A stretch of DNA of 4,971 nucleotides from a virus. Its lineage: Duplodnaviria > Heunggongvirae > Uroviricota > Caudoviricetes. Positions 1 to 4,971 of the stretch are shown in pieces (the stretch's first letter is position 1; each line of letters starts with the position of its first letter). The notes below the pieces were generated by a model. The model did no database searches. It was not told the DNA's origin and worked only from the letters and a program-made list of their open reading frames with translations. The stretch is from IMG/VR virus record IMGVR_UViG_2529292853_000007. One strand, 5' to 3'. The position numbers were made by a program, and so were the translations under genes.

Positions 1-2496
1 GTAATGCGTACCTGACCACACAGCGCAAGGCGTGGGATGTGCTCAGTGATTTCTGCTCGGCGATGCGCTGTATGCCGGTATGGAACGGGCAGACGCTGAT
101 GTTCGTGCAGGACCGACCATCAGATAAGGTGTGGACCTATAACCGCAGTAATGTGGTGATGCCGGATGATGGCGCGCCGTTCCGCTACAGCTTCAGCGCC
201 CTGAAGGACCGCCATAATGCCGTTGAGGTGAACTGGATTGACCCGAACAACGGCTGGGAGACGGCGACAGAGCTTGTTGAAGATACGCAGGCCATTGCCC
301 GTTACGGTCGTAACGTCACGAAGATGGATGCTTTTGGCTGTACCAGCCGGGGGCAGGCACACCGCGCCGGGCTGTGGCTGATTAAAACGGAACTGCTGGA
401 AACGCAGACCGTGGACTTCAGCGTGGGTGCGGAAGGGCTTCGCCATGTACCGGGGGATGTCATTGAAATCTGCGATGATGACTATGCCGGTATCAGCACC
501 GGCGGGCGCGTGCTGGCGGTGAACAGCCAGACCCGGACGCTGACGCTCGACCGTGAAATCACGCTGCCATCCTCCGGTACCACGCTGATAAGCCTGGTTG
601 ACGGAAGTGGAATCCGGTCAGCGTGGAGGTCCAGTCCGTCACCGACGGCGTGAAGGTGAAAGTGAGCCGGGTTCCTGACGGCGTTGCCGATACAGCGTGT
701 GGGGGCTGAAGCTGCCGACGCTGCGCCAGCGCCTGTTCCGCTGTGTGAGTATCCGTGAGAACGACGACGGCACGTATGCCATCACGCCGTGCAGCATGTA
801 CCGAAAAAGAAGCCATCGTGGATAACGGGGCGCACTTTGACGGCGACCGAGCGGCACGGTGAATGGGTCACGCCGCCGCGGTGCAGCACCTGACGCCGAA
901 GTCACCGCAGACAGCGGGGAATACAGGTGCTGGCGCTGGGACACGCCGAAGGTGGTGAAGGGGTGAGCTTCCTGCTTCGCCTGACCGTGGCAGCGGATGA
1001 CGGCAGTGAGCGGCTGGTCAGCACGGCCCGGACGACGGAAACCACATACCGCTTCACGCAACTGGCGCTGGGGAACTACAGGCTGACAGTCCGGGCGGTA
1101 AATGCGTGGGGACAGCAGGGCGATCCGGCATCGGTATCGTTCCGGATTGCCGCACCGGCAGCGCCGTCGCGGATTGAGCTGACGCCGGGCTATTTTCAGA
1201 TAACCGCCACGCCGCATCTTGCGGTTTATGATCCGACGGTACAGTTTGAGTTCTGGTTCTCGGAAAAGCGGATTGCGGATATCAGGCAGGTTGAAACCAC
1301 AGCCCGCTATCTTGGTACGGCGCTGTACTGGATAGCCGCCAGTATCAATATCAAACCGGGCCATGATTATTATTTTTACGTTCGCAGTGTGAACACCGTT
1401 GGCAAATCGGCATTCGTGGAGGCTGTCGGTCAGCCGAGTGATGATGCATCAGGCTATCTGGATTTTTTCAAAGGCGAGATAGGGAAAACCCATCTGGCTC
1501 AGGAGCTGTGGACGCAGATTGATAACGGTCAGCTTGCGCCTGACCTGGCTGAAATCAGGACGTCCATTACGGATGTCAGCAATGAAATCACACAGACCGT
1601 CAATAAGAAACTGGAAGACCAGAGTGCAGCGATCCAGCAGATACAGAAGGTTCAGGTTGATACAAATAATAACCTGAACAGCATGTGGGCTGTGAAGCTG
1701 CAGCAGATGCAGGACGGACGCCTTTATATTGCGGGTATCGGTGCCGGTATTGAGAACACCCCTGACGGCATGCAGAGTCAGGTGCTGCTGGCGGCAGACA
1801 GGATTGCGATGATTAATCCTGCGAATGGCAACACAAAGCCGATGTTTGTTGGTCAGGGCGATCAGATATTCATGAATGAAGTGTTCCTGAAACGCCTGAC
1901 GGCTCCCACCATTACCAGCGGCGGTAATCCTCCGGCATTTTCCCTGACACCGGACGGGAGGCTGACGGCGAAAAATGCCGATATCAGTGGCAGTGTGAAT
2001 GCGAACTCCGGGACGCTCAACAACGTCACGATTAACGAGAACTGTCCGATTAAGGGCAAACTGTCAGCCAACCAGATTGAAGGCGATCTCGTTAAAACAG
2101 TGGGCAAAGCTTTCCCGCGGGACTCCCGTGCACCGGAACGGTGGCCATCAGGGACCATTACCGTCAGGATTTATGACGATCAGCCGTTTGACCGGCAGAT
2201 TGTTATTCCGGCGGTGGCATTCAGCGGTGCTAAACATGAGAGGGAGAATAACTGATATTTATTCGTCATGCCGCCTGATAGTGCGGAAAAACGGTGCTGA
2301 AATTTATAACCGTACCGCGCTGGATAATACGCTGATTTACAGTGGCGTTATTGATATGCCAGCTGGTCGCGGCCACATGACGCTGGAGTTTTCGGTGTCA
2401 GCATGGCTGGTAAATGACTGGTATCCCACAGCAAGTATCAGCGATTTGCTGGTTGTGGTGATGAAGAAAGCCACCGCAGGCATCAGTATCAGCTGA
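1..2496 (+). pseudogene. J: Lambda-like tail tip / central tail fibre host specificity protein J, C-terminal ~830 codons; 5' end lies outside the window; reading frame disrupted at multiple points (or sequence errors)
   Basis: Frame 3 from position 3 reads NAYLTTQRKAWDVLSDFCSAMRCMPVWNGQT... matching recalled lambda J, open to 653. Between 610 and 965 the J-like sequence hops frames (frame 2 at 611-688 NPVSVEVQSVTDGVKVKVSRVPDGVA; frame 1 at 691-786 YSVWGLKLPTLRQRLFRCVSIRENDDGTYAIT; frame 3 at 786-803 AVQHVP; frame 2 at 806-847 KEAIVDNGAHFDGD; frame 1 at 850-867 SGTVNG, and so on). It returns to frame 3 for ORF 927..2255 ([54 protein letters not shown]...). Frame 3 stops at 2253-2255, and the J-like C-terminus (...GVIDMPAGRGHMTLEF...ISIS) continues in frame 1 to the TGA at 2494-2496. 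Confidence 0.85.
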
Positions 2497-2515: not shown

Positions 2516-2540
2516 GGCGCCAGAAATGGCGCCTTTTTTA
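2516..2540 (+). terminator. Putative rho-independent terminator downstream of J: GGCGCC stem, 6-nt loop AGAAAT, GGCGCC, then TTTTTTA
   Basis: Perfect 6-bp GC stem at 2516-2521 and 2528-2533 followed directly by a T-run at 2534-2539, 20 nt after the J stop codon. Confidence 0.6.
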
Positions 2541-2552
2541 TTGCAGAAAAGC

Positions 2553-2566
2553 GAGAGGTAATTATG
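2553..2566 (+). promoter_or_regulatory. Ribosome-binding site (GAGAGG) and ATG start of lom
   Basis: GAGAGG at 2553-2558, 5 nt upstream of the ATG at 2564 that begins MRKVCAAILSAAICLAVSGAPAWA, a typical signal peptide. Confidence 0.6.
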
Positions 2567-3160
2567 CGTAAAGTTTGTGCAGCCATTTTGTCCGCAGCCA
2601 TTTGTCTGGCCGTATCCGGTGCGCCTGCATGGGCGTCTGAACATCAGTCCACGCTGAGCGCGGGGTATCTTCATGCCCGACGAACGTCCCCGGCAGCGAT
2701 GATCTGAACGGGATTAACGTGAAATACCGTTATGAGTTTACGGACACACTGGGGCTGGTGACGTCTTCAGCTATGCAGGAGACAAGAATCGCCAGCTACC
2801 CGTTACAGCGATACCCGCTGGCATGAAGATTCCGTGCGTAACCGCTGGTTCAGCGTGATGGCGGGGCCGTCTGTACGCGTGAATGAATGGTTCAGCGCGT
2901 ATGCGATGGCGGGTGTGGCTTACAGCCGTGTGTCGACTTTCTCCGGGGATTATCTCCGCGTAACTGACAACAAGGGGAAAACGCACGATGTGCTGACCGG
3001 AAGTGATGACGGTCGCCACAGCAACACGTCTCTGGCGTGGGGGGCTGGCGTGCAGTTTAACCCGACCGAATCCGTGGCCATTGATGTCGCTTATGAAGGC
3101 TCCGGCAGTGGTGACTGGCGCACTGACGGTTTCATCGTGGGTGTCGGTTATAAATTCTGA
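2564..3160 (+). pseudogene. lom: Lom outer membrane protein (Ail/Lom/OmpX/PagC family beta-barrel), phage moron; reading frame interrupted by three apparent single-base deletions (or sequence errors)
   Basis: Frame 2 from the ATG at 2564 gives MRKVCAAILSAAICLAVSGAPAWASEHQSTLSAGYLHA, then a premature stop at 2705-2707. Lom-like sequence continues in frame 1 (2683-2766, NVPGSDDLNGINVKYRYEFTDTLGLVTS), frame 3 (2769-2798, SYAGDKNRQL) and frame 2 again (2798-3160, TRYSDTRWHEDSVRNRWFSVMAGPSVRVNEWFSAYAMAGVAYSRVSTFSGDYLRVTDNKGKTHDVLTGSDDGRHSNTSLAWGAGVQFNPTESVAIDVAYEGSGSGDWRTDGFIVGVGYKF, stop TGA 3158-3160). Matches recalled lambda Lom nearly residue for residue. Confidence 0.85.
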
Positions 3161-3186
3161 TTAGCCAGGTAACACAGTGTTATGAC

Positions 3187-3213
3187 AGCCCGCCGGTTCT
3201 GGCGGGCTTTTTT
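3187..3213 (+). terminator. Putative rho-independent terminator downstream of lom: AGCCCGCC stem, loop GGTTCT, GGCGGGCT, then T-run
   Basis: 8-bp stem at 3187-3194 pairing with 3201-3208, followed by TTTTT at 3209-3213; sits 27 nt after the lom stop and 12 nt before the stf ATG. Confidence 0.65.
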
Positions 3214-3224
3214 GTGGGGTGAAT

Positions 3225-4971
3225 ATGGCAGTAAAGATTTCAGGTGTACTGAAAGACGGTGCAGGTAAACCGGTACAGAACTGTACAATCCAGCTGAAAG
3301 CAAAACGTAACAGCACCACGGTGGTGGTGAACACGGTGGCCTCAGAAAATCCGGATGAAGCCGGGCGTTACAGCATGGACGTTGAGTACGGTCAGTACAG
3401 CGTTATTCTGTTGGTGGAAGGCTTCCCGCCATCGCATGCCGGGACCATCACCGTGTATGAAGACTCACAACCGGGTACGCTGAATGATTTTCTCGGTGCC
3501 ATGACGGAGGATGATGTCCGTCCGGAGGCACTGCGCCGTTTTGAACTGATGGTGGAAGAGGTGGCGCGTAACGCGTCCGCAGTGGCACAGAACACGGCAG
3601 CCGCGAAGAAGTCAGCCAGCGATGCCGGCACATCAGCCCGTGAGGCGGCAACCCATGCGACTGATGCTGCAGGCTCAGCACGCGCAGCCAGCACGTCAGC
3701 CGGACAGGCCGCGTCGTCGGCTCAGTCAGCGTCTTCCAGCGCAGGAACGGCATCAACAAAGGCCACTGAAGCATCAAAAAGTGCTGCCGCTGCAGAGTCC
3801 TCAAAAAGCGCGGCAGCTACCAGTGCCGGTGCGGCGAAAACGTCAGAAACGAATGCGGCAGCGTCACAACAATCAGCAGCCACTTCTGCATCCGCCGCGA
3901 CCACGAAGGCGTCAGAAGCTGCCACCTCAGCCCGGGATGCGGCGGCCTCAAAAGAGGCAGCGAAATCATCAGAAACGAACGCATCATCAAGCGCCAGTAG
4001 TGCCGCTTCCTCGGCAACGGCGGCAGGCAATTCCGCGAAGGCGGCAAAGACGTCTGAGACAAACGCCAGGTCTTCTGAAACGGCAGCGGGACAGAGCGCC
4101 TCAGCTGCGGCAGGCTCAAAAACAGCGGCTGCGTCGTCTGCCAGTGCCGCGTCAACAAGTGCCGGGCAGGCCTCAGCCAGTGCCACCGCCGCCGGAAAAT
4201 CGGCAGAAAGCGCCGCATCGTCCGCTTCAACAGCCACAACGAAGGCTGGCGAAGCCACTGAACAGGCCAGCGCAGCAGCGAGGTCTGCTTCCGCAGCGAA
4301 GACATCCGAGACGAACGCGAAAGCGTCGGAAACCAGCGCAGAATCCTCAAAAACGGCTGCCGCATCGTCCGCCAGTTCTGCGGCGTCATCGGCATCATCT
4401 GCGTCTGCTTCAAAAGATGAGGCGACCAGACAGGCGTCAGCAGCGAAGGGCAGCGCCACGACGGCATCCACGAAGGCGACAGAGGCAGCTGGCAGTGCGA
4501 CGGCGGCAGCACAGAGCAAAAGTACGGCGGAATCCGCGGCAACGCGCGCCGAGACAGCGGCAAAACGGGCAGAGGATATTGCATCCGCCGTGGCGCTTGA
4601 GGATGCAAGTACGACGAAAAAGGGGATAGTACAGCTCAGCAGTGCGACCAACAGTACGTCTGAAACGCTGGCGGCAACGCCAAAGGCAGTAAAATCAGCC
4701 AATGACAATGCGAATAGCAGGGTGCCATCTAACCGAAAAGTTAACGGTAAAGCACTGACTGCGGATATCACTTTAACCGCCGCGCATGTGGCTGCTTTTG
4801 CCAGAAGGGCAACGGATACGTATGCCGATGCGGATGGTGGCGTTCCCTGGAATGCCGAATCAGGCGCTTACAATGTCACCCGCTCTGGCGACAGCTATAT
4901 TCTGGTTAACTTCTATACCGGAGTCGGAAGTTGCCGGACCCTGCAGATGAAGGCGCATTACAGAAATGGTG
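3225..4971 (+). CDS. stf: Side tail fibre protein Stf, N-terminal 582 codons; 3' end lies beyond the window
   Basis: ATG at 3225 in frame 3; I translated codon by codon to 4971 and found no stop. The product begins MAVKISGVLKDGAGKPVQNCTIQLKAKRNSTTVVVNTVASENPDEAGRYSMDVEYGQYSVILLVEGFPPSHAGTITVYEDSQPGTLNDFLGAMTEDD..., matching the recalled lambda Stf N-terminus, then a long Ala/Ser/Thr-rich region, then GIVQLSSATNSTSETLAATPKAVK. It is absent from the supplied ORF track, presumably because it has no in-window stop. Weak Shine-Dalgarno-like GGGGTGA at 3216-3222. Confidence 0.9.
   Translation, partial: MAVKISGVLKDGAGKPVQNCTIQLKAKRNSTTVVVNTVASENPDEAGRYSMDVEYGQYSVILLVEGFPPSHAGTITVYEDSQPGTLNDFLGAMTEDDVRPEALRRFELMVEEVARNASAVAQNTAAAKKSASDAGTSAREAATHATDAAGSARAASTSAGQAASSAQSASSSAGTASTKATEASKSAAAAESSKSAAATSAGAAKTSETNAAASQQSAATSASAATTKASEAATSARDAAASKEAAKSSETNASSSASSAASSATAAGNSAKAAKTSETNARSSETAAGQSASAAAGSKTAAASSASAASTSAGQASASATAAGKSAESAASSASTATTKAGEATEQASAAARSASAAKTSETNAKASETSAESSKTAAASSASSAASSASSASASKDEATRQASAAKGSATTASTKATEAAGSATAAAQSKSTAESAATRAETAAKRAEDIASAVALEDASTTKKGIVQLSSATNSTSETLAATPKAVKSANDNANSRVPSNRKVNGKALTADITLTAAHVAAFARRATDTYADADGGVPWNAESGAYNVTRSGDSYILVNFYTGVGSCRTLQMKAHYRNG
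3594..4560 (+). repeat. Ala/Ser/Thr-rich low-complexity repeat region within stf (fibre shaft), with a recurring K(T/S)SETNA motif
   Basis: About 320 codons dominated by GCN/TCN/ACN codons. The unit AAGACNTCNGAGACNAACGC (KTSETNA) begins at 3837, 3963, 4047 and 4299; the spacings of 126, 84 and 252 bp are all multiples of 42 bp (14 codons). Confidence 0.55.

Follow-up and report, generated by a model that had tools for sequence, protein, structure and literature searches.

The closest described relatives of the locus analysed here are lom of phage lambda and the other Ail/Lom genes (PF06316). The locus resembles them in lying between J and stf, in having a hairpin on each side and in giving a full-length profile match once its reading frame is repaired; unlike lambda lom, its frame is broken three times in the deposited sequence, which leaves fragments of 47 aa and 108 aa only. 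Two cases from the assembly literature are close to the form of this damage. When repeats are collapsed during assembly, the read pile-up shows correlated differences (PMC2397507). Our locus is like the collapsed-repeat mis-assemblies treated there (Phillippy, Schatz and Pop 2008, PMC2397507) in being a short stand-alone contig from a multi-copy element, with apparent errors that fall at copy-distinguishing sites and cluster in patches of haplotype difference. It is unlike them in its signature, since the collapse would be known here from the footprint in the consensus alone, as lost or doubled bases rather than a majority base, and not from doubled depth or unsatisfied mate pairs. In the second case, the column-by-column consensus of the Celera Assembler over clustered differences can yield a sequence that is found in no read (PMC1964779). 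The short-range mosaics of this kind (Levy et al. 2007, PMC1964779) resemble two stretches of our sequence that match neither haplotype, GCC-C-GACG where the haplotypes have TC or CG, and ATAACTGAT where they have ACT or AAC. The mosaics in PMC1964779 were formed between two diploid alleles, whereas here the copies would be paralogous prophages in a haploid bacterium, and that paper does not explicitly report that single SNP columns are lost. For the reasons given below, we hold with high confidence that the indels of lom and J are consensus-calling errors, made when near-identical prophage copies were merged into one contig, and that they are not in the organism.

The window (the whole stretch of DNA that was analysed, 4971 bp) is the complete contig AQAC01000076.1 of the draft assembly GCA_000356785.2, which comes from the ETEC strain E. 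coli P0302293.4. It represents the tail end of a lambdoid prophage, with 96-99% nucleotide identity to annotated prophages and phages, and it contains three genes on the same strand:

1 to 2496, plus strand: the 3' two-thirds of gene J (tail tip / host specificity protein), assigned from the annotation of matching records and from Pfam matches (Ig_J, Phage_Tail_Tip, Ig_GpJ_C) on its fragments; the 5' end runs off the contig and the stop codon is at 2494-2496

2564 to 3160, plus strand: lom, a gene for an outer-membrane beta-barrel protein of the Ail/Lom family, in three frame segments in the record

3225 to 4971, plus strand: the 5' part of stf (side tail fibre), an open frame with no indel that runs off the 3' end of the contig

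The placement of lom between J and stf is supported by its neighbours in five matching annotated records and by the Pfam matches of the flanking ORFs, and lom itself is 98-99% identical to annotated lom genes at the nucleotide level. On either side of the gene is a terminator-like hairpin that is GC-rich and runs into a stretch of T, one just after J (2515-2534) and one just after lom (3187-3208). This arrangement is consistent with lom being a small unit of its own among the tail genes.

Positions 2540-3180 of the window were aligned to the intact lom genes of E. coli JE86-ST05, E. coli PSS-12 and phage PhiR42_1. These 641 bases occupied 644 alignment columns, and the only indels were three 1-bp gaps on the window side, exactly as expected from the original prediction that lom is broken by three single-base deletions summing to -3. 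The base facing each gap varies from reference to reference, and when the contexts were compared with those of the references, no homopolymer run was found at any of the three lom sites. The deletion sites and the two ORFs left in the gene are as follows:

2564 to 2707, plus strand: 47-aa ORF that starts at the ATG at 2564 and covers the signal peptide and the first strand, then 9 out-of-frame residues up to the stop at 2705-2707

2677/2678, plus strand: deletion site 1; the haplotypes are GCC-TC-GACG and GCC-CG-GACG, and the window has GCC-C-GACG

2765/2766, plus strand: deletion site 2; the references have GTC[A/G]TTC, the variable base being a third codon position (TCA/TCG, synonymous Ser)

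2797/2798, plus strand: deletion site 3; the references have CT[G/T]ACC, again at a third codon position (CTG/CTT, synonymous Leu)

2834 to 3160, plus strand: 108-aa ORF with an internal GTG start, the C-terminal part of Lom

At site 1, the references read GCC[T]CGACG or, in 14EC047, GCCC[G]GACG. The missing base had been predicted to be a T at site 2 (in TCTTTCAG) and an A at site 3 (in CTAACCC); this part of the prediction was wrong, as the references have A or G at site 2 and G or T at site 3. Translation reproduced the predicted frame path of 2, 1, 3 and 2, with the segments in frame 2 (2564-2680), frame 1 (2683-2766), frame 3 (2769-2798) and again frame 2 (2798-3160), and there was no continuous single-frame Lom ORF. 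The product from the lom start is limited to 47 residues, as had been claimed, and lom as deposited therefore encodes the 47-aa and 108-aa fragments only. The lom frame is thus interrupted in the record, with three 1-bp gaps relative to all references and the stop at 2705-2707. We attribute this interruption to the record and not to the gene.

The net shift of the three deletions is -3, and the last 121 lom codons are back in the original frame. This net shift is a point in favour of programmed recoding, in which ribosomal frameshifting or transcriptional slippage would restore full-length Lom. However, recoding would need three separate events within 120 nt, the contexts at the sites (CATGCC/CGACG, GACGTC/TTCAGC and CCAGCT/ACCCG) are neither slippery heptamers nor homopolymer runs, and thousands of lom genes are uninterrupted, so that the probability of this explanation is close to nil. 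The three deletions are also not a compensating design, because the stop at 2705-2707 lies inside the shifted stretch; the frame is restored by chance (1 in 3), since there happen to be three SNP sites.

When one base is restored at each site, lom encodes a protein of 199 aa that matches Pfam PF06316 (Ail_Lom) over residues 1-199 of 199 (E = 1.3e-122), and the 47-aa fragment matches positions 1-44 of the same profile. Leaving aside residue 39, which is Ser or Arg, the repaired Lom is identical to WP_001233093.1 at 198/199 residues, and the sole difference, I to V, is itself a known polymorphism. The near-perfect amino-acid conservation that had been noticed from the sequence is thus borne out by this comparison.

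The same kind of damage had been suspected in J, and it was found there. Within 604-963, J contains 11 deletion events that remove 12 bases (10 of 1 bp and one of 2 bp, at 933), and there is also one 1-bp insertion near 2250 (2249..2253). These indels break J into fragments of 216, 442 and 71 aa. At the insertion, the window has ATAACTGAT, compared with ATA-CTGAT in PSS-12 and ATAAC-GAT in 14EC047, and it can be read as the union of these two known haplotypes. Relative to the closest references, positions 1-603, 964-2249 and 2799 to about 4711 are free of indels. Despite 15 frameshifting events, no nonsense or unusual missense changes were found over about 3.7 kb.

The GenBank proteins from P0302293.4 include ENE31528.1 and ENE31529.1, which correspond to the 47-aa ORF and the 108-aa ORF, respectively. 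Because these two proteins equal the broken ORFs, the frameshifts sit in the deposited record and were not introduced by later processing. Prophage genes do decay, and the presence of the deletions in the deposited record and its annotation fits a genuine pseudogene, that is, a decaying (cryptic) lambdoid prophage that has truly lost three bases from lom and twelve from J. However, as many as 15 frameshifting events with neither nonsense nor unusual missense changes, together with a repaired Lom that is still so nearly identical to an intact protein, argue against decay. The distribution of the missing bases argues against it further, as described next.

Polymorphism was scored per column in a set of 85 related loci (5 annotated records and 80 IMG/VR proviruses), which gave 68 unique references for the lom segment and 61 unique references for the J segment. 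Of the columns that are deleted in lom and J, 14/15 are variable among the references, compared with 19.8% of the other columns (binomial p = 1.7e-9); for J alone, the count is 11/12. Variation at a minor-allele frequency of at least 0.2 was found at 8/15 deleted columns versus 3.6% of the others (p = 1.4e-8). We also used a more lenient null that allows for freedom in gap placement, with a column scored if its homopolymer run or a neighbouring column varies, and the excess was still clear (10/15 vs 13%, p = 2.6e-6). In lom, the column at site 1 has T in 48 and C in 20 of the unique references (minor-allele frequency 0.29), the column at site 2 has A in 63, G in 4 and T in 1, and the column at site 3 has G in 42 and T in 26 (minor-allele frequency 0.38). 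In addition, 11/14 deletion events (lom sites 2 and 3 and 9/11 of the J events) fall at third codon positions (p = 7e-4 against one third). Third codon positions are where natural differences between functional copies of a gene gather, whereas mutations and random errors do not gather there. Real frameshifts in a decaying gene would have no reason to hit columns that are polymorphic in other prophages, nor would they have a reason for the third-position bias.

The deleted allele was also absent from every other sequence in the collections searched, which is a further point against a pseudogene. A 45-mer across sites 2 and 3 and a 27-mer across site 1 had no match in genome, viral or metagenome contig collections. 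None of the 14,946 lom places in complete E. coli genomes (0/14,946) had lom identity of at least 99%, as would be expected of a copy with the same deletions, and the 47-aa product was found on one contig only among about 15 billion proteins. On this evidence, we consider a genuine pseudogene very unlikely.

The sites of the missing bases correspond to differences between known haplotypes. In lom, the references show a small number of haplotypes at these sites, of which the commonest, TC-A-G (36 loci), and CG-G-T (3 loci, including that of the complete genome 14EC047) contrast at exactly the three deleted sites. At site 1, they differ at two adjacent bases, and the window keeps the single C that both share. 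In J, the deleted columns 802, 848, 866 and 877 carry rare alleles (in 1-2 of the 61 references each), and all four of these alleles are on the haplotype of one IMG/VR locus, L015. The corresponding 216-bp segment of its J gene (L015:1177-1392, equivalent to 770-975 of the window) occurs at 100% identity in many complete genomes that have 2-9 J copies each. In E. coli O157:H7, the identical segment is present in prophage Sp8 of strain Sakai and in many further genomes. This pattern of identity means that such J segments are widely common to unrelated lineages.

No pair among the references was found whose differences are exactly the deleted sites. For J, the pair that comes closest covers 9/12 of these columns; it also differs at 12-15 further positions, where the window follows one member of the pair. 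For lom, all three sites are covered by a pair, with 7-11 further differences. Since no reference pair fits, the 85 references do not include the true parental copies. There was also no case of two loci from one genome among the 80 IMG/VR loci.

Sites that differ between copies could also be hit by a process in the cell. In this explanation, the deletions are real and were made during recombination or gene conversion between prophage copies, when heteroduplex mismatches at inter-copy SNPs were processed faultily and one base was removed at each. If true, the sequence would carry the footprint of mismatch-targeted mutagenesis in recombination between similar, non-identical copies. We regard such an origin as very unlikely. 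The preferred explanation remains an error in the deposited consensus, because the missing bases sit on sites that differ between haplotypes and the contig is a short stand-alone repeat.

The contig starts inside J and stops inside stf, and with such ends it looks like a repeat collapsed from two or more prophages. The region is usually multi-copy in E. coli: 17,585 matching places were found in 5,098/5,426 complete genomes, and the number per genome has a median of 3 and reaches 15. From this species-wide pattern, the P0302293.4 genome probably contains more than one copy. Seven of the IMG/VR loci (L010, L014, L020, L036, L063, L072 and L083) are J-lom-stf records that make up entire short contigs of draft genomes, 4.6-6.4 kb in length, which suggests that short-read assemblies of E. 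coli often leave J-lom-stf as a repeat contig of its own.

The indels could then have been formed as follows. In P0302293.4, short reads from at least two near-identical J-lom-stf copies would have piled into one contig of 4971 bp. At each difference between the copies, the two alternative bases would have been put in separate, half-empty columns, and a column-by-column consensus would have called a gap in both columns, so that the base was lost. At site 1 of lom, for example, TC- aligned over -CG would leave a lone C after the half-empty columns were dropped. At one place, in J, a base would have been called in both columns, and a base would have been gained as the insertion. We infer an assembler step of this kind, from a SNP to two gap columns to a lost base, and it would fit all 15 events. 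The sibling isolate P0302293_3, whose accession (AQAB) is the neighbouring one, comes from a Bangladeshi ETEC series for which 100-bp Illumina HiSeq reads were put together with the Celera Assembler (PMC5469772). Judging from the adjacent accession and the shared naming, isolate.4 was probably handled by the same pipeline as isolate.3. If the copies were merged in this way, at least two intact lom genes are most likely present in the organism; one would be of the TC-A-G type and one of the CG-G-T type.

The evidence demands two haplotypes in the read set and is silent on where they reside. A mixed read population, from two co-cultured variants or a polymorphic prophage, would thus give the same artefact without two copies per genome, and heterogeneous samples are also a source of correlated differences (PMC2397507). 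Nevertheless, several copies of J-lom-stf are the rule in E. coli, and the contig ends in J and stf as is expected for a repeat bounded by inter-copy divergence. A mixed culture should produce such errors genome-wide. We consider a mixed population very unlikely as the source. If it were the source, the indels would still be an artefact, with the same footprint.

Single-base indels are a classic signature of some sequencing platforms, and Illumina has low indel rates. The stripping of ambiguity codes (Y, R, K) at a downstream step would remove bases exactly at polymorphic sites. These two technical sources, random platform errors and code stripping, together seem hardly credible. Random errors would not follow polymorphic columns, and platform indels would not arise this often outside homopolymers; no lom site is a homopolymer, and the series was run on Illumina. 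Code stripping can explain neither the loss of 2 bp at 933 nor the gain of 1 bp at 2250, and it is excluded as an effect of the scan pipeline because GenBank's own proteins equal the broken ORFs.

Taken together, these results leave us with little doubt that the interruption of lom belongs to the record and has no biological reality, while the observation itself is correct for the deposited sequence. The original description of lom as interrupted by apparent deletions was correct as a description; it left the cause open, and the evidence now points to a consensus error and not to the organism. The frameshifted lom and J (ENE31528.1 and ENE31529.1) should accordingly not be counted as pseudogenes or as prophage decay in P0302293.4. 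The results also provide a simple diagnostic that works without reads: if the apparent frameshifts of a short repeat contig coincide with sites that vary among related copies, and most of them affect third codon positions, they are the mark of a collapsed consensus. Other draft assemblies from the same period could be screened for spurious pseudogenes in this way.

Two further observations concern stf. At 4712-4763, the frame is open. The closest references carry about 300 aa more here, as a module flanked by '...KAVKSA.DNA' and 'DITLTAAHVAAF', in place of which the window reads 'NSRVPSNRKVNGKALTA'. Among complete E. coli genomes, none matches 4560-4971 without a break; the best matches are split in two, with several hundred additional bases on the side of the record. 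No tandem repeats were found in stf. The short form could be a natural short allele between repeated motifs, or it could be a second assembly collapse. The part of stf that is rich in Ala, Ser and Thr is also overlapped by two long ORFs, one of 349 aa on the minus strand (3722-4771) and one of 335 aa on the plus strand in another frame (3622-4629), and the 349-aa ORF is recorded as a called gene in the contig collection. Both seem to result from the biased, repetitive composition of this part of stf rather than to be genes.
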